The notes under the pieces were generated by a model that saw only the letters and a program-made list of their open reading frames with translations, did no database searches and was not told the DNA's origin. From Pseudomonas phage pPa_SNUABM_DT01, in the sequence record MW735835.1: a DNA stretch of 64,000 nt. One strand, written 5' to 3'. Of the stretch, positions 2,709 through 63,686 are shown one piece after another (the stretch's first letter is position 1; each line of letters starts with the position of its first letter). Position numbers and translations under genes: made by a program.

Positions 2709-2738
2709 CATAGAGAGGGCCTTCGGGTCCTCTCTATG
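2709..2738 (+). terminator. Stem-loop CATAGAGAGG-loop-CCTCTCTATG followed by CTGTTTATC (CATAGAG family).
   Basis: Perfect 10-bp inverted repeat immediately after the stop codon at 2707. Confidence 0.5.
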
Positions 2739-2817
2739 CTGTTTATCAAATCCTATGGGAGCCTTTAACGAGCATTTCGTTCACGAAGATGTCTTCCTTT
2801 CTCAAGAGGCGATAAAC

Positions 2818-4845
2818 ATGCGCATTCATCTCATGGCTGCGGCCATTCGGAATGTCATCACGCCACCTGTTGTTCCCGCTGGGACATGGGAAAACGTGGT
2901 GGCACAGATCTACGAAGAGGGCGGTAGTTTTTACGACATCCGCAACCCGTCTCTCGGTACCAGGACGGCACTGATCGGGACCGGCAAGTTCGGGGGCAAC
3001 TGCCCACGGTTCACGTCTGCCGAGCAACTGACTTTCACCAGTACGCCTTTCGCGCTGCATGGCGACTTCTGCATCGAGGCCCATTACAACTTCGACGATG
3101 TAGCCAACAACAATCAGTACATGTTCGACTTGGGTAGCAACGGCTTTACTCTGCGCTATCGTAATGATGGTGCTGGTAACGGCCTGCGTATCAGCCAGGG
3201 CGCCGCCAACCTCGTCATCACCTCGTTCGTTCCGGTCCCTGGGACTTGGTACCACGTGGCGGTGGTACGTCGTAATGGCCTCATCATGCTATTTGTGGAC
3301 GGTGTCTTGCGTGGCACTGGCACTTACACCCCGAGCATGGCTTATACGTCGTACACGGTCGGCTGCTATGGTGGCAGCGGAGCGTACTCGATCCATGGTC
3401 GGATCGACCAGTTCCGCGTTTCGGTCTGGGCAGTCTACACCGAAACCTTCAGTCCGCCGATCATGCCATTCCCGACGCACGGTGAAGAAGCCGACTTCGA
3501 CCCGATGTGGTCCGATGTGGTACTGCTTCTGAAAGATGCTTCGGGTGGCATTCCAATCGACGCAACTGGTTTCCACACGGTTACCAAGTTGGGCAATGCT
3601 GCAACCACTACTGCCGCAATGCGCCTGCCAAAAATGAGCATGCAGTTCAGCGGCGCGGCTGGCGAAGCGTTCAACGTGGCCGACTCCAGTGACCGGTTCG
3701 ACATGGGGGCTCTCGACTTCTGCGTTGAAGCCTTTGTACGACCCACCGTTACGTTGCCGGCCTCGTTCGTTCAACTGGTAGGGCGTTCTGGCGCGGCCTA
3801 TGGCGGCTGGTGCCTTGGTTTGAACAACGGTGTTCTCCAGGCACGATTGTCCAACACGGGCACCTCGACTTGGGCGGTATCCTTCACTGCGCCGACCGAC
3901 ACCAAGTTGCAACTCAACCGCTGGTACCATGTCGCACTCACCCGTTACAACGGCTTGTGCACCCTGTGGATCGACGGGAAAGCGGTGGCGACATACACCT
4001 ACGGCACTGCATTGTTTGCAGGCACCGCGGCAGTCAACATCGGCGCCGACAGCAACGGTAACTTCCAATTCGGTGGGCAGATCAACAGCGTCCGTATCAC
4101 TCGGAACAATGCCCGTTACTCCAACAACTTCTCTCCGAAACGAGTCAAAGAGTTGGGTCACGTCACTGGCGACAGCGTTGACTTCGATGCGTACTACTGC
4201 CGTACTTCGGCCATGTTTGAACTGGCAACCGAACTCCAGTCCGGCCTGCGTCAGCTTCAGATCGCCACCCAGCGTTCGACCTCGCAGCTCGATGCTACCC
4301 GGCTGCTACACGGCAAGCCTACCCTGACGCTCACCTCCGGTGCCAACGGCGGGATCAACTACAACTCCTTCAACCGGGCTCTATTGGTTGCTGGAGATTG
4401 TACTGTTGAAGCGTGGGTGAATACCGACTATTCGGGAGCTGCCACGGTACTGCCGATTATTGGTCAGTATCACGCTACCACGTCCGGTGCTTGGATCTTG
4501 GGCGTCTACGATCGTAAAGCCTACTTCTTCATCCGGGGAGGCATCAACGTCGCAGGTACCACCATCATTGCTGACGGTAACTGGCACCATGTGGCAGTAG
4601 TGATTCGTAGCGGTGTAGCTTACCTGTACATCGATGGTGTGCGGGAAGGTAATACCCCCAATGTGGGCTCGGTGTGGCCGTCTTACATCGGTGCCATCCA
4701 ACTGGGTATGAACATCGCATCGGAAGCTCCGGCAGGCGCCCGCATGAACATCGGTCGTGTACGTACCACTCATGGCAAGGCTCGCTACACGGCGAACTTC
4801 ACCCCGAGTGAGAAGACGGTTCAGACGTTGTCCATGGCGGCATAA
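2818..4845 (+). CDS. Second triple-LamG receptor-binding / tail-fibre paralog, 675 aa from the ATG at 2818.
   Basis: Same MRIHLMAAAIR start and three LamG-like repeats (WYHVAVVRRNGLIMLFVDGV; WYHVALTRYNGLCTLWIDG; WHHVAVVIRSGVAYLYIDGV). The track ORF begins 63 nt upstream at a non-RBS start. Confidence 0.75.
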   Translation: MRIHLMAAAIRNVITPPVVPAGTWENVVAQIYEEGGSFYDIRNPSLGTRTALIGTGKFGGNCPRFTSAEQLTFTSTPFALHGDFCIEAHYNFDDVANNNQYMFDLGSNGFTLRYRNDGAGNGLRISQGAANLVITSFVPVPGTWYHVAVVRRNGLIMLFVDGVLRGTGTYTPSMAYTSYTVGCYGGSGAYSIHGRIDQFRVSVWAVYTETFSPPIMPFPTHGEEADFDPMWSDVVLLLKDASGGIPIDATGFHTVTKLGNAATTTAAMRLPKMSMQFSGAAGEAFNVADSSDRFDMGALDFCVEAFVRPTVTLPASFVQLVGRSGAAYGGWCLGLNNGVLQARLSNTGTSTWAVSFTAPTDTKLQLNRWYHVALTRYNGLCTLWIDGKAVATYTYGTALFAGTAAVNIGADSNGNFQFGGQINSVRITRNNARYSNNFSPKRVKELGHVTGDSVDFDAYYCRTSAMFELATELQSGLRQLQIATQRSTSQLDATRLLHGKPTLTLTSGANGGINYNSFNRALLVAGDCTVEAWVNTDYSGAATVLPIIGQYHATTSGAWILGVYDRKAYFFIRGGINVAGTTIIADGNWHHVAVVIRSGVAYLYIDGVREGNTPNVGSVWPSYIGAIQLGMNIASEAPAGARMNIGRVRTTHGKARYTANFTPSEKTVQTLSMAA

Positions 4846-4846
4846 A

Positions 4847-4880
4847 GCATAGAGGGAGGGCAGCTGCCCTCCCTCTATGC
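4847..4880. terminator. Bidirectional terminator hairpin GCATAGAGGGAGGGCAG/CTGCCCTCCCTCTATGC between convergent genes.
   Basis: Perfect 17-bp palindrome between the + gene ending at 4845 and the - gene ending at 4884. Confidence 0.55.
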
Positions 4881-4883
4881 CGT

Positions 4884-5534
4884 TTAGCTGTTGGTGTACA
4901 GATCCTGCACCTCTTCCAAGGACAAGGCCTTGTCGTAGATACGGAGATCTGCTTGCCAGCCTCGCGAGTACTCACCCGTGCCCACACCGTTACCGATGCG
5001 GAAGGTTTTTGCCGCGATGTTCATGGTTACCGAGTAGGTACCACGCAGAACGCCGTTGATGTAGAACTTCAACGTGCCGGCATCGTAGGTGATAGTGATC
5101 AGGTGCCACACATTCACGCTGATGTTGACGTTGGCAAATTTGCTTCCAGCGGGTGCCATGGTCTTAGCGTAGAGGTAGGTCCTGGTCGGTGTCGGATCAG
5201 ACGTCGGAGAGATCTTGAACAGGAACTCGGTGTTGTCAGAGCTGCTCAGCAGGTGTTGATAACCCGCCAGCGTCTCTGGGCAATACCAAGTACTGACCGT
5301 CCAAGGCCCGGCACCGATAGTCAGGCTAGGCAAGTCAATCCAGTTGTTGATCGAACCTGGGAGCTTGACCGCTTTACGACCCAGCTTGGTTTCGAATGTG
5401 AGTCCAGCCGTACCGGTACCGTTCTTACCACCTACGCTGTCAACGTAGTCAGTTTGGAACTTCCACCAGTTCTTCAGGTTGGCAGAGATAGCAGAAGCCT
5501 GCTTGATCGCTGCGGGAAGTAACATGCGCACCAT
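4884..5534 (-). CDS. Single-domain LamG / ConA-like lectin protein, 216 aa; probable fibre or baseplate accessory.
   Basis: WHLITITYDAGTLKFYINGV .. LRIYDKALSLEEV, the classic LamG core. Confidence 0.7.
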   Translation of the reverse strand: MVRMLLPAAIKQASAISANLKNWWKFQTDYVDSVGGKNGTGTAGLTFETKLGRKAVKLPGSINNWIDLPSLTIGAGPWTVSTWYCPETLAGYQHLLSSSDNTEFLFKISPTSDPTPTRTYLYAKTMAPAGSKFANVNISVNVWHLITITYDAGTLKFYINGVLRGTYSVTMNIAAKTFRIGNGVGTGEYSRGWQADLRIYDKALSLEEVQDLYTNS

Positions 5535-5548
5535 GATCGGTACCTTTC

Positions 5549-6739
5549 TTAGAAGCGCAGATCTACCACTTCACTTACGGTGAGTGGTTGGTACAGACCG
5601 GTCGTGTCAAAAGTCAAACGGGTGTAGTTCGATCCAGCGACGTAGTCGTGGACGATCCGTTTGGTCAACATGATGCCGTCGATCTGTGCCTCGGTGATGT
5701 TGTCTGCACGCACATCACCTGTGATGTACAGGTTGAACTGTTTGTCGGTGGTGTTCCACTGAGCGAAGAAGATCGCATTGGTACCTTTGTACAACGGGTT
5801 GGCAATGGAGCCCATGCCGTTGTTCGAAGGATCGCGATAACCCAGCAGTACGAGGCCGGTGAGGGTGCGGGTACCTACGGTGATCTGGCATTCGTGACGA
5901 TATGCCGGGACCGAGGTCTTACCCGTTGCAGTGAAGATCACGACTGGGAGCTTCGCACCTTCTACTTTGGAAATATCCATACCCAAAGTATCGAATACCA
6001 ACGTGGTCTGGTCTGCCGTTGGGGCGTAACGAGAATACTTGAAAGTCAGTAGCACCCCGCCCACCATGACCAACCACTGCTTACCAGCTACACGAGCGTT
6101 ACCCGTGATACCGATGCGGAATTCGTTGAGGGCGTCATGCCAGTTCATGGCATAGATTGGAAGACCTTCCAGATTCACGTCACTCAATGCACCCATCGGG
6201 TTGGGTAGCGAGTTATCACGGAAGCCGTAGGACGGATTTGGAGCATACACGTCGGTGCGCTTGCCGACAATGATCTCTGCTTCGTAAACCTGCACAGGGA
6301 GGTCTCTCGGCGTCGATGTGACGAGTTGGATGGTGACGGGTCGTCCTGGGCCAGTACTTCCAGGAAGAGCCACAGAGGACCAATCGAAGGTCACTGAGGT
6401 GGTATTGGCGCCTGCGTTGTACGAGACCCCTGTCACCGGCACTACCAGGCCATTGATGACGCACTTGGTGAAACTGAGGTTACGATGGTCGCCTTTAATC
6501 ACGAAGCCGCCAGTTCGGTCATAGACGTGCCAGTTGGCCATTAAGACTTCGTATTGGTTATTGAACTGGTTGTTCGACACCGAACCCATTGGGTATTGTT
6601 CTGTGCTTGCGCGGTAACCATAAGAGGGCTGTCCGCCATAGAACGTCCGAGTACCGATGACCAAGGTGGTTTCGAACGCCACCGTGGATTTGTACTTGGC
6701 GTATCTCCGCGCGGCCGCAGCTAGATATCCAATTCGCAT
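5549..6739 (-). CDS. Hypothetical virion / tail protein, 396 aa from MRIGY.
   Basis: Long ORF with an RBS (GAGGACAGG) before the ATG at 6739, tightly packed in the structural block. The track start at 6766 lies inside the upstream terminator hairpin. Confidence 0.55.
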   Translation of the reverse strand: MRIGYLAAAARRYAKYKSTVAFETTLVIGTRTFYGGQPSYGYRASTEQYPMGSVSNNQFNNQYEVLMANWHVYDRTGGFVIKGDHRNLSFTKCVINGLVVPVTGVSYNAGANTTSVTFDWSSVALPGSTGPGRPVTIQLVTSTPRDLPVQVYEAEIIVGKRTDVYAPNPSYGFRDNSLPNPMGALSDVNLEGLPIYAMNWHDALNEFRIGITGNARVAGKQWLVMVGGVLLTFKYSRYAPTADQTTLVFDTLGMDISKVEGAKLPVVIFTATGKTSVPAYRHECQITVGTRTLTGLVLLGYRDPSNNGMGSIANPLYKGTNAIFFAQWNTTDKQFNLYITGDVRADNITEAQIDGIMLTKRIVHDYVAGSNYTRLTFDTTGLYQPLTVSEVVDLRF

Positions 6740-6760
6740 GAACCTGTCCTCGAAAATAAA

Positions 6761-6786
6761 GACCACCGGGGATATCCCCGGTGGTC
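6761..6786 (-). terminator. Hairpin GACCACCGGGGATATCCCCGGTGGTC followed by a T-run in the minus-strand sense.
   Basis: Perfect inverted repeat downstream of the gene 6806..7393; GGGGATATCCCC-loop family. Confidence 0.5.
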
Positions 6787-6805
6787 TAGGACTGAGCAGA
6801 CTGGC

Positions 6806-7393
6806 TTACGCCGGCAGCTTCATGTCGCGGCCGATGTGGTAGCCGTCCCAGGTCGCACCACCGTCGTAGGAGGTGAAGGCCAGGACGTCGCGACCGGCAG
6901 CTTTCAGGGTGGGCTTGGTGCCTTCCGACCAGCTGATGTTCGGCCAGTAGTTCACGGCAGCGGAACCGCCGTTGACCAGGTGCAGGGTGAAGCTCACCAC
7001 GCGACCGCTCTCCGGGACGTTGCTCACCGAAAGGGTGGTGGCGCCGGTGATGGTCTTTTTGTAGTGGTTGGCCAGGCGGACATCGATGGCGGTGCCAGCG
7101 GCCAGGTCGGCCAGCTTCTCGATGATGGCGACGTTCATCTCGCCGCCGACCGGCAGGCCAGCTTCGTTGATGGCTTCGTCGATGGCCGCTACCAGCGCGT
7201 TACCTTCAACGAGGTCGATGACTTCGCCGTCGGTGTAAGTCGCTGCTTGGGCCAGAATTTCAGAGGTGATCTCGGCAAGAGTCTTGCCTTCGAGTTTTGC
7301 AGCATCGTCGGCCTGACGAGCGGCCAGCGCGGTAACGACGCGCTGAATAGACGCCTTCAGCGCGGCTTCAATTACCGGATTGGACATTGCCAT
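6806..7393 (-). CDS. Tail-fibre-like protein, 195 aa from MAMSNPV, sharing an N-terminal attachment module with the partial gene at 1..498.
   Basis: MAMSNPVIEAALKASIQRVVTALAA..KLEGKTLAEITSEILA aligns residue-for-residue with gene 1; the C-terminal part is different. Confidence 0.6.
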   Translation of the reverse strand: MAMSNPVIEAALKASIQRVVTALAARQADDAAKLEGKTLAEITSEILAQAATYTDGEVIDLVEGNALVAAIDEAINEAGLPVGGEMNVAIIEKLADLAAGTAIDVRLANHYKKTITGATTLSVSNVPESGRVVSFTLHLVNGGSAAVNYWPNISWSEGTKPTLKAAGRDVLAFTSYDGGATWDGYHIGRDMKLPA

Positions 7394-7486
7394 GGTTTTG
7401 TACCTTTCAGTTGTTAGAGAGCGTGGTTGATGCTCCCGCATAACATTGGACCAGGCAAAGAGGAGGCCTGAGCCTCCCTCCGCCAA

Positions 7487-7990
7487 TTACTGCTGTTCAG
7501 CTTCCAAGCCGGCGGCAATATCGTCAATGTCATTGGTCACATTGGTCATCACTTGCTGGAATTCGTCACGCAGCAGGTATTCGGAGGCGTTCACCCCACC
7601 CAGCTGCTCAGAGTCTTTAACGGTGCCATCGCGGGCTTCGGTAATGATCTCTTCGCGAGTCTTTCCATCCAACTTCAGTGCGTTGACTGCAATATCTTCA
7701 ACGCCCAACTTTTCCTTGAGCAGGTCTTCGATCTCAGTCCGCGAGAAAGTACCTACTTGGGCAGCAGTTACCTGGTTGGGGTTATCCCGCCTTGCGGCAA
7801 AGATAGCAAGGATAGCATTGATAGTGGTGCGGTAGGTTTTCTTCTCCATACCTGCACCGCCGTCAGCCCGTGTTCTGACGGTAATCTCAATGCTATCCTC
7901 ACCAGAGAGCTGCTCAGGATCGATTGGGGGAAGTTGGAAGATCGTGGCGGTCCAATCATTCGCCGGTACCGGCGGGTTCTCTTCTGCCAT
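7487..7990 (-). CDS. Hypothetical structural protein, 167 aa, with fibre-type motifs (KLDGKTREEI, LGGVNASEYLL).
   Basis: ORF with a clean start; motif similarity to the K(L/F)xGKTxxEI elements in the fibres. Confidence 0.5.
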   Translation of the reverse strand: MAEENPPVPANDWTATIFQLPPIDPEQLSGEDSIEITVRTRADGGAGMEKKTYRTTINAILAIFAARRDNPNQVTAAQVGTFSRTEIEDLLKEKLGVEDIAVNALKLDGKTREEIITEARDGTVKDSEQLGGVNASEYLLRDEFQQVMTNVTNDIDDIAAGLEAEQQ

Positions 7991-8036
7991 GGTCCTTCCC
8001 TCAATTATCCGTGATTAGCTGATCAGATCCGTTGAC

Positions 8037-8561
8037 TTAGGTAGGCTGAGCTTCGCTGTCAACGATTTCGATCTGGAGGCCGCCGAGTTCCGGGTTACCG
8101 ACGGCTTCAGTCAAAGGGAGCTTGTCAACCACCAGGCTGACCAGCAGTTGACCTTTGAACGCGAAGGAGCCCGGCAGGGCTTCCAGGACGATGCTGTCGC
8201 TGCCCGGCTCGATGGCCTGGGCGAAGTCGAAGTCATCGTCGGTGAAGCCCAGGTCGAAGCGGGTGTTCAGCTTCTCGACCAGTGCACCAACGGTCTCGTC
8301 GCCCTGGAGGACTTCGATGTTGTTGATGTTGTAGCTGGCGAACCAGGCGGTCAGGTCCAGACGGTCGTAGAAGGCGGTGGCGCTGCCTTCGAACAGGCTG
8401 TCCGGAGTGGCGGAGTAGACGACCTGAACCTCGCGGTTCGGGTTGGTGGAGGCTTCCGGAGCGGCGAAGCTCAGATCGGAGGCCAGGAAGGAAACGCCTT
8501 CGTTGGCGGCAGCGTTCAGGGCTGCCAGCAGGGCGGCGCGACCAGTTTTGGCGCTGTTCAT
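8037..8561 (-). CDS. Hypothetical protein, 174 aa from MNSAKTG.
   Basis: ATG with GAGGAT upstream; the track ORF extends further to a non-RBS start. Confidence 0.5.
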   Translation of the reverse strand: MNSAKTGRAALLAALNAAANEGVSFLASDLSFAAPEASTNPNREVQVVYSATPDSLFEGSATAFYDRLDLTAWFASYNINNIEVLQGDETVGALVEKLNTRFDLGFTDDDFDFAQAIEPGSDSIVLEALPGSFAFKGQLLVSLVVDKLPLTEAVGNPELGGLQIEIVDSEAQPT

Positions 8562-8676
8562 GCGGTAATCCTCGTTGGGATGGATGAATGCAGCCGTTGA
8601 TGGTAAAAAACAACTGCACATAGGATGTCGGCATAAAACCCTCACGATACCATTACAGTATCGTGAGGGCTGATGC

Positions 8677-9831
8677 TTATTGACGCGGCAGCCAGATTTG
8701 ACTGGATGCGGGGCGGTGCAGCTCGAACGGGAAGGTCATGCCATGGTCATTGTGGCGTACCACGTTGACACGGTATTGGCCGTTGTCCTGCTCTTGCGGA
8801 GCGGCTTGAGTCGCTGCCACATCGAGCCACTTCTCCATGTAGGGGAGCGGCATTTCCAACGGTGCCTTGAAGTCCACCGGACGTTCGAGCACGTCCATGG
8901 CGTCGGCACAGTTGAAGTTGATGTAGGAACCGATCTCGTCCCAGCCCACACCCGGCACCTTGGAACCGGAGTCACGCTGGAAGTTGCGCCAGCGCATTTC
9001 CGAAGCACGGACCTCCAGCATCATGTCGTCGATGAGCTGGCGGTTGGCCTTCCAGGCAGCACGACCACGGGCAGTGGCCATTTCGGTCTGGAGCACGTAC
9101 TTGCCGACGTTCACATGGATCTCGGCTTCGTCCTGAGCGATACGCTGTACCGCTTTGCAGATCGGCATGTAGTCGCCAGTCTGAGCGATAGCGCCGGTCA
9201 CGGCGAAGGAGCCCATGAAGTGGACGCGCTCCAGCAGGAACAGGGCCACGGTGAACATGAAGGCAGCCGAGTAGGCTTCTTCGGAGTTGCGGTCGATCTC
9301 GCCCAGGGAAACACGCAGACCAACGCGGTAGGAATGACCCATGACCTTGCTGACGGTTTCCATGCGGGACATGGCTTCCTTGATCGCCAGGACTTCGGAG
9401 AGCACCTGGTTCGGCGCATCGAAGCTGTACCGCACGATCTCGGAGTAGGTAGTGGCGTGCAGGTTCTCGTTCGCCACGATCTGGTCCCACAGCACTTTGA
9501 GGGCCGGGTTGGTGACGAAGTGGTTGCCTACTGCCATGATGGAGTTGGCTGCGATGGAATCGCCTTCCCACTGCCAGCCGAGGTTCTGGATCATTGCCTG
9601 AGCGATCCACTTGTCCCCGGTCTTGAATTCGAGCAGGCACGGACTGAAGTCGAACTCGTTGGTGTCCCAGTCCAGACCACGCAGCGAACGCCACATCTCC
9701 CACAGACGCGGGTGCGGGTCGTTCACGGTATCCAGCAGGCCCTTTGGTTCACCAAGGAATAGACGCGTGTCCCCATAATCGCCCTTGTTGGCGTTGAAGA
9801 TCACGGAGTCGATGATTGCAATTTCCGACAT
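8677..9831 (-). CDS. nrdB: Ribonucleotide reductase class Ia small subunit (R2, diiron-tyrosyl).
   Basis: 384 aa; ferritin-like R2 signatures (ERVHFMGSFA, NLHATTYSEIV, EAYSAAFMFTVALFLLE); lies immediately downstream of nrdA. Confidence 0.85.
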   Translation of the reverse strand: MSEIAIIDSVIFNANKGDYGDTRLFLGEPKGLLDTVNDPHPRLWEMWRSLRGLDWDTNEFDFSPCLLEFKTGDKWIAQAMIQNLGWQWEGDSIAANSIMAVGNHFVTNPALKVLWDQIVANENLHATTYSEIVRYSFDAPNQVLSEVLAIKEAMSRMETVSKVMGHSYRVGLRVSLGEIDRNSEEAYSAAFMFTVALFLLERVHFMGSFAVTGAIAQTGDYMPICKAVQRIAQDEAEIHVNVGKYVLQTEMATARGRAAWKANRQLIDDMMLEVRASEMRWRNFQRDSGSKVPGVGWDEIGSYINFNCADAMDVLERPVDFKAPLEMPLPYMEKWLDVAATQAAPQEQDNGQYRVNVVRHNDHGMTFPFELHRPASSQIWLPRQ

Positions 9832-9890
9832 GGGTTTGAATTCCGAAAGAGGGAGGAAAGTCGGGGATTGCTCCCCGACTACCGTAGCAG

Positions 9891-12389
9891 TTAAACCGAG
9901 CAGCCGCCCGAGGTGCAGACCGGACCGGAGGTGTCGATGCCGTCGTCTTCCACGACTTCACGACGCACACGGGTCATCACCGCCTTGAGTGCTTCCTTGT
10001 CGGAAGTCTCGGAGTTGGTGTAGTAGACCGTCTTCTGACCCATGTGGGCCATGTAGTTGGTCTCTTCGATCAGCTGAGAAGAGTCGATCTTCTCGTCGCC
10101 CTTGAAGGTCGCGTACCAGTCGGCACTGATGGACTGATCGCCCCACTTCTGGAAGATCGCGTAGGTGTTGGTATGTTCCTTACGCGTGCGGTTCCAGGCA
10201 ATGGAGTACCATTCCTTCAGGGTGTCGGCTTCCGGCGCTACCCAGTAGATGGAGTTGTCGCCATCGGTCTTGACGATCGACAGGTAACGCAGGTCCATCA
10301 GACTGTTGGTGCAGGCACTGTACTTCGAGGACGACTCACCCGGCATGTGAGCAATGAGCGAGCTGAAGCGACCACCGCCTTGTTCGATCAGGCGACGCGA
10401 GACGTCATCCCAGTCGTACTGGTCAACGAACGGCGCCAGGGTGTCGACGTTGCGGTTGTAGGTGGACTTGGGAGTCCAGCCGCGCGGCCAGTCAGTCTTG
10501 TGAATCCACTCGGCGTTGCCGCGCTCCTGACCCAGGCGAATGGACGCATTGATCAGGTGGTACGCATGACGTTCTGCCAGACGGTGCAGTTCCATCATGC
10601 CCTCTTCCGAGGTATAGCTCAGATGGCGCTGAGCCATGTAGTGCGCGACGTCCATGAGGCCCACACCTGCGTTACGTCGTGCTTGTGCGGTGAGCTTCAT
10701 GTGCGGCAGAGCGTAGTCGTTGTGATCGATGCAGTAGTCGATCATGTACAGTGCGTTGTAGGCAGTCTCTGCGTACTGCTCTTCGCTGTGGATGTTGGTC
10801 GGGATGATGGCAGCCAGGGCACAGAGGGACACCTCCGGCTCTTGACGCTTGTCGTTGACCTGGGTCACGCGGGACCAGTCGTCATCGCCTTCCTTACGAT
10901 CCTGCGGCGCACGACGGTACATGACACCCGGCTTGAGTTCCAGCGCTGCCACGCAGCCCGGGATGCCCTTCACTTCGACCGGCACGTTGGAGTCGAGGAA
11001 CACGTCCTTCTTGTCTTCGGTGTCGAACTTGATGAAGCCCAGGAACTTGGTGCTGTACAGCTCAGTCAGGTGGTTGTAGTACCAGGTTGGCTGGGTGATC
11101 TCGACGCACAGGTTGGAGGAGTAGATCGAATCACGGTGCGGCGTGTGATAGTTGATCTCGTCGATCATGGCCAGGTAGAAGCGGCCAGTCTCGAAGCCTT
11201 CCGAACGAGCGTTCACCACCAGCTGACGGGCAGAGATGAACTTCTTCTTGAACTTCTCATCGGCTTCGTACTTGTTGTACAGCTCGATGAAGTGCCTCAG
11301 GTCCTTACCGTACAGCGCGGCGTACAGGTCCGGCGCGGTGTAGATGTTGAACAGGAAGACTTGTTCGCCCTTGGCTGACTTGTCGAGCAGCCAACGGTTC
11401 AGCATCATGGTGTAATCGATGCTGCGGTTACGCTTGTTGATCGGAGTCCGCGGGTTCTTGAGAACCATGATTTCCTGGACTTCCGGATCGTAGCAGCTGA
11501 AGTACTCGTTCAGGCTGCCGCCACGGCTACCTTGCTTGTTCGACTTGACGATGCCAGTCTGCTTGCCGTAGTACGGGATCTTGCCGCTGTGGATGATGGA
11601 ACCACCACGGATGGGGTCGCCCAGCGAGCGCACCTGCATGTTCTCGCCCAGACCGGCGGACATGTAGGTCATGACTTCGGCGATGTGGCTGGCCGCTGCG
11701 ATGGACTCTTTGGAGTCGCCAGCAGTGAACAGGCAGCACGAGAAGAAGCCGTTGTGGCCAGTGCCGAAGTTGTTGTGGTTCGGAGTCGGTGCCGACAGAC
11801 GCTCGCTGTAGAGGTCTTCGTAGATCGACTTCAGGCGAGCCATACGAAGGATCGGGTCGTGATCCTCACACATGACCATCGCGACACGCGCCAGGGCGTG
11901 CTGACGGGTCTCGTAGACCTTGCCGGTGATGCGGTTGCGCAGGGAGTACTTGTCGCGACCCTGCTTGAGTTGGTAGTGCGCGCAATGGAAGTCACGCTCG
12001 TGGTCGATCCAGGTCTCGATCAGCGCGTACTCTTCTTCGGAGTAGTTGAGCTGGACCATGACACCGGCGGCGATCATGATTTCGTGCACTTGCTTCAGCG
12101 GAAGCTTCTTCTTGCTGCCGAATACCTCTTTGTGGATATCGGCGGCATAAATGCGCCCTGCCATCAATTGGCCGGCCCAGCTGTCCTCATTCAGCGCATT
12201 GCGGATGAGGCCGTTGTTGAATTCCTTGGCTGTGCAGCGCTCAGACATCTGCGAGACGGTCTGGACGACGATCTTCTGCCAGTCGATGTATTTGGAGAAG
12301 CCACGAGCACCCCACTTACCCCAACCAAGGGCTTTCTCTGCCTGGAAAGGCACTACTCGTCCGTCGCGTTTGATGAATTCTTTGATCAT
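9891..12389 (-). CDS. nrdA: Ribonucleotide reductase class Ia large subunit (R1).
   Basis: 832 aa; active-site SSNLCVEITQP; ATP-cone-like N-terminus; C-terminal CTSGGCSV redox Cys pair. Confidence 0.85.
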   Translation of the reverse strand: MIKEFIKRDGRVVPFQAEKALGWGKWGARGFSKYIDWQKIVVQTVSQMSERCTAKEFNNGLIRNALNEDSWAGQLMAGRIYAADIHKEVFGSKKKLPLKQVHEIMIAAGVMVQLNYSEEEYALIETWIDHERDFHCAHYQLKQGRDKYSLRNRITGKVYETRQHALARVAMVMCEDHDPILRMARLKSIYEDLYSERLSAPTPNHNNFGTGHNGFFSCCLFTAGDSKESIAAASHIAEVMTYMSAGLGENMQVRSLGDPIRGGSIIHSGKIPYYGKQTGIVKSNKQGSRGGSLNEYFSCYDPEVQEIMVLKNPRTPINKRNRSIDYTMMLNRWLLDKSAKGEQVFLFNIYTAPDLYAALYGKDLRHFIELYNKYEADEKFKKKFISARQLVVNARSEGFETGRFYLAMIDEINYHTPHRDSIYSSNLCVEITQPTWYYNHLTELYSTKFLGFIKFDTEDKKDVFLDSNVPVEVKGIPGCVAALELKPGVMYRRAPQDRKEGDDDWSRVTQVNDKRQEPEVSLCALAAIIPTNIHSEEQYAETAYNALYMIDYCIDHNDYALPHMKLTAQARRNAGVGLMDVAHYMAQRHLSYTSEEGMMELHRLAERHAYHLINASIRLGQERGNAEWIHKTDWPRGWTPKSTYNRNVDTLAPFVDQYDWDDVSRRLIEQGGGRFSSLIAHMPGESSSKYSACTNSLMDLRYLSIVKTDGDNSIYWVAPEADTLKEWYSIAWNRTRKEHTNTYAIFQKWGDQSISADWYATFKGDEKIDSSQLIEETNYMAHMGQKTVYYTNSETSDKEALKAVMTRVRREVVEDDGIDTSGPVCTSGGCSV

Positions 12390-12493
12390 GGGTTACTGCC
12401 CTAGCTGGTGATTCCTTGACCGATTCCGTTAAGTGATGGTCCTCTATGCATAATGTATCCGGGGGTCTATTTCTTTTGTAAATTCGACGGATA

Positions 12494-12513
12494 TATAACG
12501 ATACATTATCGCG
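12494..12513 (+). promoter_or_regulatory. Promoter-like motif TATAACGATACATTATCGCG, about 60 nt upstream of the + gene at 12575.
   Basis: Recurs with variations at 23159, 41087, 42281 and 62320, each time upstream of a plus-strand gene block. Confidence 0.4.
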
Positions 12514-12574
12514 GTGTGAAGGCCCAGTTAAAATAAAAGGACCAACACTTTACTATGCTGTAAGGGGAGTTTTT

Positions 12575-12889
12575 ATGGAAGCCATAACCGTCCACAAGCT
12601 CAACGATAAGCTCATTGTGAGCCTCCTTGAGTTACCGGGGTTTCGCCGCTTGGGGGCAGTGGTAGTGCGGAACGAGCAAGGAGAGAAGTCAGGCGACGTG
12701 GATGTCTACTTCTCGGGCGATTACTTCGATCATCAACTTGAACCAGGGGAGTTCGATAAAACGCGTAACCAGATGACCAAGCTGGTCAGGAACTACGCAA
12801 TCAAAAATAAGCTGGGCGTCTCGACAGGGCGGTTCAATCTGTCCCTGACGTTGCGCGAACGAGCAAACGCAAAACTCGCAGTGGTATAA
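12575..12889 (+). CDS. Hypothetical protein, 104 aa.
   Basis: ORF with GGAG upstream; first gene after the divergent intergenic region. Confidence 0.45.
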   Translation: MEAITVHKLNDKLIVSLLELPGFRRLGAVVVRNEQGEKSGDVDVYFSGDYFDHQLEPGEFDKTRNQMTKLVRNYAIKNKLGVSTGRFNLSLTLRERANAKLAVV

Positions 12890-12899
12890 GGGGAACTCA

Positions 12900-13235: not shown

Positions 13236-13239
13236 CGAC

Positions 13240-14064: not shown

Positions 14065-14068
14065 CGAG

Positions 14069-14449: not shown

Positions 14450-14456
14450 GGACAAC

Positions 14457-15407: not shown

Positions 15408-15409
15408 CA

Positions 15410-15640: not shown

Positions 15641-15642
15641 GC

Positions 15643-15852: not shown

Positions 15853-15868
15853 GAAAGGGTATAACCCA

Positions 15869-16366: not shown

Positions 16367-16385
16367 CGCCTAGAAGGAACCTATC

Positions 16386-18466: not shown

Positions 18467-18481
18467 AGTACCTGACAAACG

Positions 18482-18517
18482 GCATAGAGAGCAGCTCCTA
18501 GGAGCTGCTCTCTATGC
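18482..18517. terminator. Bidirectional hairpin GCATAGAGAGCAGCTCCTAGGAGCTGCTCTCTATGC (CATAGAG family).
   Basis: 36-nt perfect palindrome between convergent genes. Confidence 0.55.
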
Positions 18518-18527
18518 TGCTGTGCTG

Positions 18528-23069: not shown

Positions 23070-23101
23070 CATAGAGAGGAGCCTTCGGGCTCCTCTCTAT
23101 G
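23070..23101 (+). terminator. Hairpin CATAGAGAGGAGCC-ttcg-GGCTCCTCTCTATG followed by CTGCC (CATAGAG family).
   Basis: Inverted repeat directly after the capsid-like gene. Confidence 0.5.
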
Positions 23102-23236
23102 CTGCCTCTCTTTATTTTCCGTGTTGCCATTATAGTGCCATGTCTGCTCAACCAATTTAAAGCAATACATTATCTAACAGAGCAAACGTGTGGTAATAAA
23201 ATACACGTGTAATTTTTTAAAGAAGAGCCATCATCT

Positions 23237-27984: not shown

Positions 27985-28004
27985 TGGGGGCCTTCGGGCC
28001 CCCA
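27985..28004 (+). terminator. Hairpin TGGGGGCC-ttcg-GGCCCCCA followed by TTTATTATG.
   Basis: GC stem with a TTCG tetraloop after the stop codon. Confidence 0.45.
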
Positions 28005-28057
28005 TTTATTATGACACAGTTCCTTTTTCTTTTTTCTCCCTTTAGGCAGAACCGGTT

Positions 28058-28768: not shown

Positions 28769-28780
28769 GAACATGCGTCA

Positions 28781-28822
28781 TAGAGCCACTCCAGTCCCCT
28801 TACGGAGGCTGGAGTGGCTCTT
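28781..28822. terminator. Hairpin TAGAGCCACTCCAG..CTGGAGTGGCTCTTATG (CATAGAG-family variant).
   Basis: Inverted repeat between convergent genes. Confidence 0.45.
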
Positions 28823-28827
28823 ATGCA

Positions 28828-38700: not shown

Positions 38701-39322
38701 TGACGCAGAACCTGCTGCCGCTGAAGCTGCATCTGCTGATGCTGACCTGGCTCTGGATGACACTGCTGCTGACGCTACTGGCGATGAGGCTCCGGCCGAA
38801 CCCGCAGAGGCTGACGCAGACCTCGACCTGGATGAAGGTGATGGAACCGGAACTGACACCGACGCAGACAATGCAGGTGCTGGTGACGATCTGGATCTGG
38901 ATGCAGGCACTGAACAACCGGCAGAAAACGAAGGCGCTGAGTCTGAATTGGAAGTAGAGGACGAACCTGAAGCTGCTCCTGAGCCGAAGGAAGACACCCC
39001 TGCTGAACAACCGGCTGAGAGCAACGTAGAACCGGTCACTGAAGAAAACCTCCAGATCAAGGATATCCCGATCGAAGAGGAAGAAGAGCCTGAACTGGAA
39101 GGCGCTGCTGCCACTGACGAACCCGCTGCTCCGGCAGAAGGTACCGACGGTGAACAGCCTGCTGCGGAAGAACCTGAGCCGGAACTGGAGGAGACCCCAG
39201 AAGCCCCGCAGGTAGACGACGAAGCAAACAAGCCAGAAGGTGAGGAAGAAGAGGAAGAGAGCAAGGATAAGTCCGACAAGGACGATCTGGATCTCGACCT
39301 GCCGACTCCTCCTAAGGCGTAA
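35747..39322 (+). CDS. Large protein, 1191 aa, with an ~300-aa hyper-acidic D/G/E/A low-complexity C-terminus.
   Basis: The C-terminus is GGDDYGSDAGGGDGGDDLGDGGDAGLDLDGGD... then EPE/AAE runs ending DDLDLDLPTPPKA. Confidence 0.6.
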   Translation: MNDQVRRFPQFAGQRSIPNEVKAAISKLGADPHGSANKRGNMRLPDGRVMAHVANTTIGNIRDARNLFQILPDMDYARQILISATISPGDLTDTKVLYSLADDSLDSNLSGPLLRMVQEFFDNSYRIRPLLHPILNDVMFETGSYPIMMMPESSIDRIINSENYGGVSMESAQQTLDAYMQEETKDGKYIPWGILGNANAAKDNVDSYTGVSFESLTFNGSSYNSAVQTTELKVSFENLLVDNEANKKYRSDLQVQSTEMNKILNSKGSTVDVIDNLTILKRPQIVETRRKLAVRRIYGGKLHQRASLESRAQNGDRDAARNLAAVERSMYQKRRYQHIPVQPIMTHSQTGTETYGHPLVMHLPSESVIPIHVPGNPAEHVGYYVMLDIDGNPISVADQTSYYDDIKSQMNNVDSYASQIIQQARRGFEGMGDFHNEIIDEMGKVYSEAIERDLLARLRAGALSGNYELGKTENINRIMFGRHMKGQKTIMLYVPAELMTYIAFDYNEFGVGKSVLEDGKILGAIRASLMLSNTLATLNNAVGGKTIEIELDPEDEDPVSTVEFMLSEYAKVNAQGFSRIIGSTHPLGLADQIQNHGVNVVVSGNTRYPETKLNVSSRDGTNKPIDSDFEETMRKRHIQMFGLSPEVMEGINQADFATTVVQNNLMLLKRVIMNQEKFEPFLTDFVRRYILNSGTFLEDMRALIIENKTLIPDHIKQDERFKDDEAAQVDAFLFEFIDSLMVGLPSPEVGDIRKAMESFDSYSEALDKVIDAYVNEEMFAADYSVGMEQLIPNIKAVTKAEFQRRWLRKHNVMPELDVFNTVREEDQGPAFDLLGAAEEHLDGLNGSIASYVKRLVKAAKKRAKVLEKLTEEKTELENLKNDAAGAGGDDYGSDAGGGDGGDDLGDGGDAGLDLDGGDAGDGGTDEGGDGLDMDLDGGDGTDTGDAGDGTDGLDLDGGDGADGTDGGESGADAELAALDAGGEGGDAEPAAAEAASADADLALDDTAADATGDEAPAEPAEADADLDLDEGDGTGTDTDADNAGAGDDLDLDAGTEQPAENEGAESELEVEDEPEAAPEPKEDTPAEQPAESNVEPVTEENLQIKDIPIEEEEEPELEGAAATDEPAAPAEGTDGEQPAAEEPEPELEETPEAPQVDDEANKPEGEEEEEESKDKSDKDDLDLDLPTPPKA

Positions 39323-39324
39323 CA

Positions 39325-39358
39325 GCATAGAGCGGGAGCCATTGGCTCCCGCTCTATG
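39325..39358. terminator. Bidirectional hairpin GCATAGAGCGGGAGCCA/TGGCTCCCGCTCTATG (CATAGAG family).
   Basis: Palindrome between convergent genes. Confidence 0.5.
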
Positions 39359-39365
39359 TCGCGTG

Positions 39366-40898: not shown

Positions 40899-41086
40899 AT
40901 AGAGGGGTGGAAATCTCAGCTAACTCCCCCAAGACGGATAAGCAAAAATCAAAGCGTAGCAGGGGGCTTTTCCCTGCTTATGCTCCGCGTCACCGTGAAA
41001 TTCGGGGAGGACGGAAGCTGCATCTAGTTATATAGCTTTTAGACACCCTATTTATATCGGGATTAAGAATTCCATCCGAATCAATT

Positions 41087-45004: not shown

Positions 45005-45071
45005 GACAGCATAAGAGGGAGGGCAACCTCCCTCTATCCTCTCATCTCATTTTATCTTTGGAGGATCTGGC

Positions 45072-45809: not shown

Positions 45810-45817
45810 ACGGCATA

Positions 45818-45841
45818 AGAGGGAGCCCTAGGGCTCCCTCT
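45818..45841. terminator. Hairpin AGAGGGAGCCCTAGGGCTCCCTCT followed by TAGCTTTCTTTTTTCTTTTTTGC; between convergent genes.
   Basis: Palindrome plus T-run (CATAGAG-family variant). Confidence 0.5.
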
Positions 45842-53028: not shown

Positions 53029-53116
53029 CCTCTTTAAAGAAAAGATTCATAAGAAAGGTTCCGCATGTTTTAAGACACACGGCATAAAGGCCCGGTCTAG
53101 CCGGGCCCCTATGTTG

Positions 53117-54118
53117 TCACGCAAGGATCACCTTGAACATGGCCTTGATCGAGCAGTCTTTCGACTTCTCGCCCAGGACCGTGTCATGCAGGAAACACCG
53201 TAGGCCACAGCGCTGATAGAACTCGCAACTGAAGCACCCGTAGTGTTCCACAAATGTCACTTCTGCGTTGTCCTTCGCGATCAGGCCTTCCTTCTCATCG
53301 AGGATTGCATCTTTGCCCGCTTCAGACCAACAGGTACTGATCACCCCATCCTTGTTGATGATCTTGGTGGAACGGCACGTGGTCTCGTTGACGACGTTAC
53401 GTTTCCAGTCCTTGATCGGATAGGAGTTCGGGTACTTGTCGTTCAGCTTGATGTACAGCTGACTGATCAGGTCTTCGTCGGGTTGATGATAGGCGTACAG
53501 CTGACTGGGGATGTAATGATCGAAGTACACGTCGTACTTGTCACAGAGCCAGACGAACTCGTCACCTTCCTTGCCATCGAGGAAGATTTGGATGTTCTGC
53601 TTGGTGATCACCACGTTGACCGTCTGAACGTACTCGCCCAGGACTTCGAGGTTCTGGAAGAACAGTTCACGCTGAGCACCATTGAAGCGCCCAGCAGGGT
53701 CGTAGGACGTGGCTAGCCAAACACGTGGGTCGATCAGCCGGAGCCGTTCGATCAGGTGCTTGACGCGGTCGGTGTTGTGGTAGACGAGATTGGTACCGAA
53801 GACCAACTTGACATCCTTGAAGTGTTCCAAGCACATCTTGCCGACTTGGTAGTACGCCTCGAAGACGTCATCACCAATCTCGTTCATGAACAGTTCACCG
53901 CCGGTGATGTTGACCACCATAGCCGTGTCTGGGTGCGTGGTTGCCAAGAGCTTGGCAGCCTTCTCGATCATCAGATCCCCGTCGAGACCCACTTTGGAAT
54001 CATGGTCCTGGTGGCAGAACGAGCAACGCATGTTGCACAGCTCGAACAGGATCAGGTGGGCTTCTTTCCACTTGCCCTTCTTGTCACGCAGGATGTCTAC
54101 AACAGGGATCAGGTCCAT
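53117..54118 (-). CDS. Radical SAM / SPASM-domain enzyme 5, 333 aa from MDLIPVV.
   Basis: ILFELCNMRCSFCHQD; C-terminal CWSEAG .. CFSCEFYQRCGLRCF. The track start is a TTG 6 nt upstream; the ATG shares one nucleotide with the upstream stop (TAATG). Confidence 0.8.
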   Translation of the reverse strand: MDLIPVVDILRDKKGKWKEAHLILFELCNMRCSFCHQDHDSKVGLDGDLMIEKAAKLLATTHPDTAMVVNITGGELFMNEIGDDVFEAYYQVGKMCLEHFKDVKLVFGTNLVYHNTDRVKHLIERLRLIDPRVWLATSYDPAGRFNGAQRELFFQNLEVLGEYVQTVNVVITKQNIQIFLDGKEGDEFVWLCDKYDVYFDHYIPSQLYAYHQPDEDLISQLYIKLNDKYPNSYPIKDWKRNVVNETTCRSTKIINKDGVISTCWSEAGKDAILDEKEGLIAKDNAEVTFVEHYGCFSCEFYQRCGLRCFLHDTVLGEKSKDCSIKAMFKVILA

Positions 54119-57623: not shown

Positions 57624-58177
57624 AGCTTCGCTTCCAAAAAGAGTTCCAAGCCGAAACTAATCATCAGGGAACTGTCGACATTGATGGCCTGGTGAAGTTC
57701 ACCACGCGGAATATGGATGCTGTCCCCGGCAGTGAGTTCGATCTCGCCATCAGGGAACTTGAAAACTTTACGGCCTTCGACCATGTAGATGACGACGTCA
57801 TCTAGGTCTGTGTGCATCGGGAAGCTGACGCCCCCTTTCGGCGAAATGAAAAGATGAGCGCTCACTGGCCCCACGTGTCCGAAATGCGCAGCAAGCCGCG
57901 CACAGTTCTGGAACATGGTGGCATTGAGGCGCTCGATCCCTTCGATCTTGACCGGGCAATCGCTGTTCTCCAGGAAGTCAGACTGACTGTAGAGGTCGAA
58001 CGATTGCGCGTTCTTGATGTATTTCACCAGGCACTGCTCGTACAGATGCGGGCTTGACAGCAGAAGGTCCACATCGAGAAGCTCAGGAGTGATCCCCTCG
58101 AATTGAAAACCAAGACGTTCGAACATGTTCAAGCCCTCTCTGAAGTTGGTGTCTATAGGATTGCCTAGAAGGATCAA
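57620..58177 (-). CDS. Cupin / JmjC-like Fe(II)-oxygenase-fold protein, 185 aa.
   Basis: SFPMHTDLDDVVIYMVEGRKVF .. GDSIHIPRGELHQA (HxD .. H triad in a cupin-like spacing); ATGA-coupled on both sides. Confidence 0.55.
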   Translation of the reverse strand: MILLGNPIDTNFREGLNMFERLGFQFEGITPELLDVDLLLSSPHLYEQCLVKYIKNAQSFDLYSQSDFLENSDCPVKIEGIERLNATMFQNCARLAAHFGHVGPVSAHLFISPKGGVSFPMHTDLDDVVIYMVEGRKVFKFPDGEIELTAGDSIHIPRGELHQAINVDSSLMISFGLELFLEAKL

Positions 58178-62210: not shown

Positions 62211-62322
62211 TTAAGCTCTCCGTGGGGGAACTCCATCGGTTTCAAATAGCCGCGTGGAAGGCCTCGAAATCTGAGTCATTCTTTAAAAACAAAGTCTGTT
62301 TAATATTGGATATCAAACAACT

Positions 62323-62339
62323 GGCATACCATTATCGTG
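62323..62339 (+). promoter_or_regulatory. Promoter-like motif GGCATACCATTATCGTG just upstream of the gene at 62353.
   Basis: Variant of the ATACAT(T)ATCG motif family in an AT-rich intergenic region. Confidence 0.3.
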
Positions 62340-62352
62340 GGAGACTCGATAA

Positions 62353-63654
62353 ATGTACGAATACCAAGGCGCTTTGGTCAAGCACCGTAAGCCTGACGTC
62401 CGCTTTGAAGAAAAGGACGTGAAGGATATCGCGGTCAAGACCCTCCTGCGTGATTATGCCGAGGTCTACCTCACCCTGACTCATCCGAGTCTGGAAGGGA
62501 AACACACCCTCGTGTTGACCGAAGTGGCAGACCGGACAGGCAGCCTTCTCGAAACCACCACCGTAGCGCAGTGGTTGGTCGATAACGGCAATCTGACCCT
62601 GCCCACGCACGAAGGAATCCCATTCACCAAGACCAGTGTCGTCATGGCGCGTGATGCCTGGATGGCAGGGTATCGGGTGGATCGCTGCATCCCCAATGGT
62701 TCTCCGTTCAACGACGCCATTGACTCGGACAAGACCGACATCTGGCTGACTCGCGACGACACCGACTACGTGGATGTCCAACGCCACTGCTTGGGCACAG
62801 TCAACGGCCTGTTCCACCGGGTGGATGCAGACAACGATGGCGTCTACCTGAAAGACGGCGGTATCACGTTCCGTAAAACCCAGAACGCGCTGGTCGGTCT
62901 GGTGAGTTTCAAGAACATCGGTCGAGTGCACACTGCCAGCATCACGCCGGACATGGTGTACAACCCCGACATCACCAAGCGTTACTCGGACAACTTCTAC
63001 CTGAAGGTCCCGTTCGACACCAGCAACAAGGTAATGGGCATCGTGATCGGTGGTTACCTGCATCTGCACACCAACGACATCCAAGTCATCGGCGGCAATG
63101 CGATGAAGGTACGCATGAACAAGATCCCGTTCCTGGATCGTTACATGGTTTCGCGCTACCTGATCGACCAGTCGTCTATGGAACGCTTCCACGAGGTGTC
63201 GGCCACCAACGAATTGGACTATGACCTGCAAGGGTTCCTGTCCAATGAATGCATGTTGGAACTGTTGACCCTGAGTCAGTCGTTCATCGTTGGTATCGAA
63301 GTGGATCATCTGACCACCAAGGTGTTCCAGACCTCGCGCACTCATCTGCCGGGTCGGTTCTACCATGACCAACGTCCCCTGCTGCCGCTGCGTACCCAAC
63401 TGGGCCTGATGCCCTCGTACATCAGTGAAGAAGAGAACGGTGTCTGGGTTATCCGGGTGGACAACAACCTGCAACAACACCGCTTCATGAACACCCGTGA
63501 TTACAGCCTCCAACCCAAGGTCGATGAGAAACGCATCTCCTCGGAACCGGAGACGCTGGCCCGCGGCGAACTCGTACAGTGGGCAACCCACACGGTCGAG
63601 ATCAAGGTTCCTGAAGTGCAAGTCCCGGCAGACATCCTGCCAATCGTGCCCTAA
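62353..63654 (+). CDS. Hypothetical virion / baseplate-like protein, 433 aa.
   Basis: Long ORF followed by a CATAGAG-family terminator. Confidence 0.5.
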   Translation: MYEYQGALVKHRKPDVRFEEKDVKDIAVKTLLRDYAEVYLTLTHPSLEGKHTLVLTEVADRTGSLLETTTVAQWLVDNGNLTLPTHEGIPFTKTSVVMARDAWMAGYRVDRCIPNGSPFNDAIDSDKTDIWLTRDDTDYVDVQRHCLGTVNGLFHRVDADNDGVYLKDGGITFRKTQNALVGLVSFKNIGRVHTASITPDMVYNPDITKRYSDNFYLKVPFDTSNKVMGIVIGGYLHLHTNDIQVIGGNAMKVRMNKIPFLDRYMVSRYLIDQSSMERFHEVSATNELDYDLQGFLSNECMLELLTLSQSFIVGIEVDHLTTKVFQTSRTHLPGRFYHDQRPLLPLRTQLGLMPSYISEEENGVWVIRVDNNLQQHRFMNTRDYSLQPKVDEKRISSEPETLARGELVQWATHTVEIKVPEVQVPADILPIVP

Positions 63655-63661
63655 CGGCAAA

Positions 63662-63686
63662 AGAGGAGGGCCAGTGGCCCTCCTCT
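63662..63686. terminator. Hairpin AGAGGAGGGCCAGTGGCCCTCCTCT followed by ATGCTGTC; between convergent genes.
   Basis: Palindrome; CATAGAG-family right arm (CTCTATGCTG). Confidence 0.5.

Follow-up and report, generated by a model that had tools for sequence, protein, structure and literature searches.

Hairpins with a conserved outer stem in a phiKZ-like jumbo phage: probable terminators with a TATG tail

Why do hairpins that lie between the genes of a phage, and whose inner stems and loops differ, have the same bases at the foot of the stem? The question is raised by a stretch of 64,000 nucleotides (nt) of DNA, 56% GC, from Pseudomonas phage pPa_SNUABM_DT01 (MW735835.1), below called the window. 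The original prediction listed nine hairpins in it with an outer stem of CATAGAG and CTCTATG, and regarded such conservation of a stem sequence as anomalous for terminators. For this phage family that does not hold, as phages phiKZ and 201phi2-1 have a published conserved terminator motif, and we find it probable, at roughly 80%, that the elements are transcription terminators of the same sequence-conserved type. The type itself is already described; what the window most likely adds is an explanation of the outer stem from a tail that is used in both directions.

The terminator-like hairpins, and the conservation of their sequence at gene boundaries, were borne out by counts, shuffles and folding. 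The motif search proposed in the original prediction was run on the window and found CATAGAG enriched over shuffles and the elements intergenic. The heptamer has 16 copies on both strands, as compared to 4.4 ± 1.9 in dinucleotide-preserving shuffles, none of which reached 16, and the arrangement CATAGAG-N(4-30)-CTCTATG occurs five times with 0.00 expected (none in 100 shuffles). The perfect pairs are found at 2709-2738, 4848-4879, 18483-18516, 23070-23101 and 39326-39358. The stem said to be identical in nine hairpins is thus perfect in five, and the other four (28779, 45006, 45810 and 63654) are real hairpins with an outer stem that only approximates it. All nine form stable RNA folds, with ΔG of -19 to -37 kcal/mol and z of -3.6 to -7.3 against shuffles. 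They are GC-rich with short loops, and their stems measure 9-19 base pairs (bp), as compared to the at least about 7 bp expected of a phiKZ-type terminator stem-loop. The longest stems, 15-19 bp, are those at 4847, 18480, 28779 and 39325, and the short ones, 9-12 bp, those at 45006, 45810, 63654 and 2709. The inner stems and loops do vary from site to site, as had been described.

All nine listed elements are intergenic and 3' of genes on our gene map of 70 genes, made with a self-trained codon model, so the position claimed for them, after stop codons and often between convergent genes, holds. The gap from stop codon to element is 1-13 nt in eight of them and 29 nt at 23070, counted from the stop of the capsid gene. 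Six elements, at 4847, 18480, 28779, 39325, 45810 and 63654, lie two-way between convergent genes; every convergent junction in the window has one (6/6), and none of the divergent junctions does (0/6). Five of the convergent junctions come from the gene map, and the sixth, 63654-63693, is read as convergent because a minus-strand open reading frame (ORF), 63694-64000, runs off the window. This ORF (…GHGATGSSDMDIP*) is absent from the list of the ORF tool. The spacers at the convergent junctions are 38-61 nt long, and the element fills them. The nine elements are:

2709..2742, plus strand: predicted terminator hairpin CATAGAGAGGGCC-UUCG-GGUCCUCUCUAUG with tail CTGT (ΔG -23.6, z -5.1), 3' of the virion-protein gene 641-2707 and between tandem plus-strand genes.
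4840..4883, both strands: predicted two-way terminator GCATAGAGGGAGGGC-AGCU-GCCCTCCCTCTATGC (ΔG -36.5, z -6.5), convergent junction with stop codons at 4843-4845 and 4884-4886; tails TATGCCGT (plus) and TATGCTTTATGCC (minus).
18479..18523, both strands: predicted two-way terminator CGGCATAGAGAGCAGCUCC-UAGG…CTCTCTATGCTG with TATGCYG on both strands, between gene 17855-18466(+) and the helicase-like gene 18528-20093(-).
23070..23105, plus strand: predicted post-capsid terminator with a UUCG loop and tail CTCTATGCTGC, 3' of capsid gene 20800-23040.
28779..28826, both strands: predicted two-way terminator (ΔG -37.1, z -7.3), convergent junction 28058-28768(+) / 28828-29037(-); degenerate outer stem CATAGAGCC…GGCTCTTATGC, its arms CATAGAGCC…GGCTCTTATG with a one-base bulge.
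39322..39361, both strands: predicted two-way terminator ACAGCATAGAGCGGGAGCC-AUU-GGCTCCCGCTCTATG, junction 35747-39322(+) / 39366-39974(-).
45006..45037, both strands: hairpin ACAGCATAAGAGGGAGG-GCAA-CCTCCCTCTAT between tandem plus-strand genes; outer arms CATAAGAGGG…CCCTCTAT, reading CATAAGAGG…CCTCTAT; full tail TCTTATGCTGT confined to the minus strand.
45810..45841, both strands: predicted two-way terminator, junction 45072-45809(+) / 45864-46589(-); outer arms GCATAAGAGGG…CCCTCT, with GCATA on the 5' side only and no TATG on the 3' side; ordinary U-tract CTTTCTTTTTTCTTTTTT in the plus direction and tail TCTTATGCCGT in the minus direction.
63654..63693, both strands: predicted two-way terminator between gene 62353-63654(+) and the off-window minus-strand ORF (stop at about 63694); outer arms CAAAAGAGG…CCTCTATG, with TATG on the 3' side only; tails CTCTATGCTGT (plus) and CTCTTTTGCCGT (minus).

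One-sided members of the family had been overlooked:

8627..8671, minus strand: one-sided hairpin with tail TTTTATGCCGAC, end …GAGGGTTTTATGCCGAC, 3' of gene 8677-9831(-) and directly followed by the promoter-like ATCCTATG.
53080..53107, minus strand: one-sided hairpin GGCCCGGCTAGACCGGGCC with tail TTTATGCCGT, 3' of gene 53117-54118(-); it reads …GGGCCTTTATGCCGT, the closest match to the GGBYTTATKYYGT part of the phiKZ consensus.
40958..40986, plus strand: one-sided hairpin AGCAGGG-GGCTTTT-CCCTGCT with tail TATGCTCC, end …CCCTGCTTATGCTCC.
27985..28015, plus strand: one-sided hairpin TGGGGGCC-UUCG-GGCCCCCA with tail TTTATTATGAC, end …CCCCCATTTATTATGAC; the tail ATYTATTATGAC is kept in 7 relatives.

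The loops are UUCG in the tandem-gene copies 2709, 23070 and 27985, and have self-complementary centres (CAGCTG, CCTAGG and CCCTAGGG) at three convergent junctions, types which fit a role at the RNA level.

Judged by its genes, the window is from a phiKZ-like (chimallivirus) jumbo phage, because it has a match to the phiKZ capsid protein, the phiKZ gene order from gp119 to gp130 and a homologue of gp123. The capsid ORF 20800-23040 matches PF25620 PhiKZ_MCP with E 9e-210, the gene order is retained across 20135-39974, and 24375-26021 is the homologue (27% identity overall) of gp123, the beta subunit of the non-virion RNA polymerase (nvRNAP). They mark a phiKZ-like phage that has multisubunit RNA polymerases of its own. 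Among the other ORFs there are matches to phiKZ-type virion proteins, to a ribonucleotide reductase and to PHROG 2943 "polymerase". A megablast search with 10 kb of the window against a phage collection gave no match; by tblastn the best capsid identity among catalogued phages was about 34%, and the phiKZ capsid protein is about 30% identical. Closer relatives are IMG/VR contigs of 250-277 kb, with a capsid identity of 75-85%, and orthologous loci from 11 relatives made up our comparison set.

The phiKZ motif, 5'-BCCYCCCCHWWDGGGRRGGBYTTATKYYGT-3', is common to 61 terminators that were mapped by experiment and describes a hairpin with a "TTAT" tail after it (Putzeys et al. 2024, PMC10914365). 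201phi2-1 has a similar terminator motif A (n=59), and a motif B by which the hairpin is made longer (PMC11512511). In both phages, elements of this type are where the 3' ends of transcripts were mapped (PMC10914365, PMC11512511), and eight of the 201phi2-1 terminators were assayed with the host polymerase in a reporter assay (PMC11512511). The elements of the window have this tail, B-Y-T-TAT-K-Y-Y-G-T, directly 3' of a GC-rich stem. When aligned on TATG, the terminator-side tails give C-T-C-TATG-C-Y-G-T (n=12, window), which is also the consensus of 58 distinct tails from the window and the loci of the 11 relatives. The trailing CTG, reported as frequent, is indeed so and is part of the longer tail TATG-C-Y-G-T. 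TATGCYG has 25 copies in the window as compared to 10 expected; 15 of them are in intergenic DNA, which makes up 7% of the window, and 12 stand directly 3' of a hairpin. The enrichment of TATGYYG beside hairpins was seen in four genomes:

Window, GC 56%: 11 of 42 hairpin sides; background per 20 nt 0.004; p 2e-17.
phiKZ, GC 38%: 9 of 36 hairpin sides; background per 20 nt 0.006; p 1e-12.
Xoo-sp14, GC 58%: 7 of 32 hairpin sides; background per 20 nt 0.002; p 1e-12.
RP12, GC 53%: 13 of 38 hairpin sides; background per 20 nt 0.007; p 2e-19.

Y-Y-G-Y comes after TATG in all four. The Us around TATG track the GC content of the genome, but TATG and YYG do not, which suggests that a specific sequence is under selection and not mere U-richness. 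TATG tails are not enriched in lambda, a weak control with just 5 strong hairpins, and AR9 has TATG at 2 of 20 hairpin sides with a background of 0.08, also a weak control with just 10 hairpins. In the Escherichia coli phage Goslar, where perfect hairpins are too few for statistics, the post-capsid terminator, the only site seen, ends …GGGGGAGGTTTCTATGCCGTTT.

Ordinary U-tracts also occur in the window. A second class of terminator, in which a true T-rich tract, CTTTTTTCTTT(G), comes after the hairpin, was observed at 17797-17840, 42224-42262 and 45842-45863, and at 28016-28040 such a tract lies 3' of a TATG tail, not of a hairpin. The sites of the true U-tract class are 15868, 17797, 42224 and 45818(+). 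After the capsid genes of Xoo-sp14 (22236-22290) and RP12 (22035-22095) there is a hairpin, then a U-tract, and then TTTATGCCGTC 10-20 nt further on; it therefore seems that the TATGCCGT element is separable from the stem.

How could a tail give rise to a conserved stem? Each element would form a GC-rich RNA hairpin with a fixed tail in place of the usual U-tract, and the RNA polymerase would copy the hairpin and stop within the tail; between convergent genes, one element would end transcription from both sides. An elemental pause at Y(-1)G(+1) is known for cellular multisubunit RNA polymerases, and UAU|G, where the RNA would end in U before an incoming G, would be a plausible signal for pausing or release. 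The simplest explanation of the conserved outer stem is that it consists of the tail and its own complement in two-way terminators. Such a terminator needs CTCTATGC on each strand and therefore reads GCATAGAG–hairpin–CTCTATGC. As the opposite-strand copies of CTCTATGC are mutually reverse-complementary, they also form an outer stem, GCATAGAG…CTCTATGC, and the hairpin becomes longer. Among the 20 convergent-junction hairpins of the window and the 11 relatives, TATG is found at both sides of 18, and TATGYYG at both sides of 14, counts from orthologous and thus non-independent loci. A review describes transcription in the phage nucleus of these phages as separate from the ribosomes, and such a separation would permit hairpins a few nt past stop codons.

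The orthologous loci also show how the outer stem has changed. After the capsid gene it is CATAGAG/CTCTATG, CATAAAG/CTTTATG, CAAAAAG/CTTTTTG or ATAGAT/ATCTAT, and at the helicase junction CATAGAG/CTCTATG or CATACAG/CTGTATG. These compensatory changes show the outer stem to be truly paired. TATG is mostly constant while the adjacent stem positions co-vary, the exceptions being TTTG and TATT. The pairs were read from loop-centred sequences; a MAFFT alignment of the post-capsid terminators misregistered the arms. Three sites can be followed as far as phiKZ. The element at 23070 aligns with the phiKZ terminator after gp120, ACATAGGCCCTCCC-TTCG-GGGAGGGCTTTATGTTGT, with which it shares the UUCG loop and the CATA/TATG flanks, the junction at 28779 corresponds to phiKZ gp125|gp126 (GGCATAAACCCCTCTCC…GGAGAGGGGCTATGTC in phiKZ), and that at 39322 to gp129|gp130 (ACATAATGCCCTCCC…GGGAGGGCTTATGACGT).

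Several observations weigh against terminators of this kind. That transcription ends at these sites in the phage of the window is something we infer. The tail is poor in U, with 3 U in CUCUAUGC; the tails of the family have about 3 U in 8, as compared to at least 5 in 8 for a canonical intrinsic U-tract, and a terminator scan of positions 1-20000 recovered one of the three family hairpins there (2709). The palindromic copies at 2709, 23070 and 45006 sit between tandem genes, and at 45006 the full tail is on a strand with no gene to terminate; a similar case exists in phiKZ, after gp138. At one-directional sites the excess of TATG on the terminating side is just modest, 29 of 61 as compared to 18 of 61 on the other side (p≈0.06, orthologous and non-independent loci).

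It is highly improbable that the hairpins are instead a dispersed repeat of common origin, of the repetitive extragenic palindromic (REP) or miniature inverted-repeat transposable element (MITE) kind, copied through the genome. Some purine-rich arms are shared, GAGGGAGGG at 4847, 45006 and 45810 and GAGAGG…CCUUCGGG at 2709 and 23070, but the inner stems and loops are unlike between sites. Moreover, phiKZ and the 11 relatives have a terminator at the same junctions, and the stems have evolved there by compensatory substitutions. The elements are not near-identical full-length copies with presence/absence differences among relatives, and neither flanking target duplications nor intragenic copies were seen. 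The REP-like origin in the original prediction is therefore disfavoured, as three sites align with phiKZ terminators and the inner stems differ. Only a little more credible is a stem base that is bound or cut, for example by RNase III, as happens in T7, or by an RNA-binding or export factor of the phage, for the 3' processing or stability of the mRNA. It would account for a stem base conserved in sequence besides pairing, the 15-19 bp stems at 4847, 18480, 28779 and 39325 come near the length of an RNase III substrate, and chimallivirus mRNAs need export from the phage nucleus, for which no export signal is known. However, a T7-type RNase III duplex has about 20 bp or more and usually an internal loop; the stems here have 9-19 bp, those of 9-12 bp (45006, 45810, 63654 and 2709) being short for the enzyme, and an internal loop, as is typical of T7 sites, is absent from all of them. 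The one-sided members have the 3' tail without a double-stranded outer stem. ChmC, the only RNA-binding protein known from chimalliviruses, attaches close to start codons and shows no detectable motif, and the published ChmC study, which we checked for a 3'-hairpin binding motif, has none. Nor did any element match an Rfam family.

The promoter question is harder to set aside. In phiKZ the late-promoter core of nvRNAP is TATG with G as +1, and every base is needed in vitro, although TATG by itself is insufficient as a promoter (PMC4666361); the polymerase reads it in the non-template DNA, in single-stranded form, with a pocket of gp123 (PMC12809450). The tail TATG is identical to this core, so the link to late promoters drawn in the original prediction was well founded. 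It is conceivable, though unlikely, that the elements are composites of terminator and late promoter, where one transcript ends and the next begins at the TATG of the stem base, with G as +1; at the convergent junctions such composites would fire outward antisense RNAs. The gp123 homologue of the window retains F151, H185, N186, K190, H331, S334, N398 and Q466, has Y406 replaced by F, and differs at S144, K158, Y399 and S402. TATG is far more constant than its neighbouring stem positions among orthologues, the TTTATGCCGTC of Xoo-sp14 and RP12 stands beyond the U-tract as if separable, and AR9, whose nvRNAP uses a different promoter, lacks the enrichment of TATG tails. Against this, neither strand has a downstream gene at any of the six convergent junctions, so that a promoter would have no use there, and the placement of the family is not the one upstream of late genes and in their direction. 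The tandem copies have other promoter-like motifs close by. Near 2709 there is AAATCCTATG at 2748-2757, which matches the hairpin-free AGATCCTATG upstream of the paralogous gene 641, where the same ATCCTATG is found. Near 23070 there is AATACATTAT-N6-G at 23164, which fits the AT-rich pattern of early promoters, read by the virion RNA polymerase, with a start 6 nt downstream. TATG is also replaced by TTTG or TATT in orthologues. A dual role as terminator and promoter may thus be kept as a possibility, not as the explanation.

A tentative idea, doubtful although somewhat less so than the composites, is that the tail is no degenerate U-tract but the TATG element that nvRNAP reads at late promoters in the single-stranded non-template strand, and that one protein-DNA contact, in the beta-lobe pocket of the gp123 homologue, marks both starts and the pause and release, or re-initiation, after a hairpin. 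The gp123 pocket has been described as incomplete in the transcribing complex (PMC12809450), which makes a reading of TATG by the elongating enzyme less likely. If the idea is true, termination in chimalliviruses would be polymerase-specific and read from sequence. The TATG shared by terminator and promoter may be taken as a lead, not as established.

Motifs that resemble promoters were also observed apart from the family hairpins. ATCCTATG is seen at distances of 28-86 nt ahead of gene starts, and these sites are candidates for late promoters of nvRNAP, with the G of TATG as +1; they have no hairpin of their own, and the one at 58154 has TATA:

572-578, plus strand: ATCCTATG.
2751-2757, plus strand: ATCCTATG.
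8619-8625, minus strand: ATCCTATG.
40060-40066, minus strand: ATCCTATG.
58154-58160, minus strand: ATCCTATG.

RATACATYAT has 5 matches as compared to 0.1 expected, all intergenic. Four of them are 56-66 nt upstream of start codons and are followed by N6 and G (A at 12450), and the fifth, at 42348, overlaps the start codon:

12450-12459, minus strand: RATACATYAT.
12500-12509, plus strand: RATACATYAT.
23164-23173, plus strand: RATACATYAT.
41092-41101, plus strand: RATACATYAT.

The motif is retained in relatives 3' of the capsid terminator, where phiKZ has, after gp120, the early promoter TATATTAC. Going by its sequence and position, RATACATYAT is likely an early promoter of the virion RNA polymerase, for instance for the gp122/gp123-like operon. 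A stray CATAGAG at 12442 is explained by the RATACATYAT motif there. CTTTACTATGCTG occurs twice, at 12549-12560(+) and 41735-41746(+), with 0.1 expected and without a hairpin. The first copy lies 18 nt upstream of the start of gene 12575; the second is separated from gene 41852 by 109 nt, which include a 13-bp hairpin at 41786-41819. The sequence, which has TATGCTG in common with the terminator tail, may represent a further class of promoter. TATG was also found depleted inside genes, with z of -5.4 sense and -6.0 antisense in a synonymous-codon shuffle. We rejected this as a signal, as the control TATC gave z -5.6, which points to a general avoidance of TA.

Some features of the surroundings should be mentioned. 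Genes 641-2707 and 2818-4845 are tandem paralogues of virion type, each product with three Laminin_G_3 domains; both start with MRIHL and share a duplicated upstream region (…TATCARATCCTATG…), and the true start of the second gene is probably 2818, rather than 2755 or 2896. The 491 nt at 41361-41851 have no called gene, hold TATG motifs and the strong 13-bp hairpin, and could encode a small ORF or a non-coding RNA. No Rfam family was matched in the window at gathering thresholds, and a tRNA scan found nothing.

If the elements are terminators, a hairpin with TATG-Y-Y-G, palindromic at convergent junctions, would be a simple marker of the ends of transcription units in nucleus-forming jumbo phages, most of which would be missed by standard terminator finders that depend on a U-tract. 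The tail survives a change from 38% to 58% GC and a change of host (Pseudomonas, Xanthomonas, Ralstonia), which suggests that the polymerases of the phages themselves read the signal. Its identity in TATG with the start-site core of nvRNAP may then be a lead on how these unusual polymerases terminate.

Compared with known systems, the elements resemble T7 RNase III sites in being sequence-related intergenic hairpins of a phage with its own RNA polymerase, but the stems are shorter and without internal loop, and the one-sided members lack a conserved duplex. With the phiKZ late promoter they share the same four bases, and the window also has a gp123 homologue that retains most pocket residues and hairpin-free ATCCTATG motifs upstream of virion genes. 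The TATG of the tail, in contrast, stands 3' of genes, at convergent junctions on both strands, and is extended by a conserved YYGT, a feature unreported for late promoters.

The likeness to the phiKZ and 201phi2-1 terminators is a GC-rich stem-loop with a yTTATKYYGT tail at sites after genes and between convergent genes, in a type with dozens of copies per genome in those two phages, and in 201phi2-1 a second motif also lengthens the stem. There are differences from phiKZ. The terminators of phiKZ are mapped by transcript ends, and those of the window are predicted from sequence. The Us flanking TATG in phiKZ are C in this clade of 56% GC (CTCTATGCYGT as compared to CTTTATGTTGT), the polarity of the arms is reversed, with a purine-rich 5' arm AGAGGGAGG where phiKZ has CCYCCCC, and in many copies of the window the tail is fully paired as a perfect outer stem. 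The bacterial bidirectional intrinsic terminators, built from an A-tract, a hairpin and a U-tract, are similar in that one palindrome serves both strands of convergent genes and that pairing between the flank upstream and the tract downstream makes the hairpin longer. Where they have the U-tract, the elements of the window have a specific tract with TATG, in which 3 of 8 tail bases are U.

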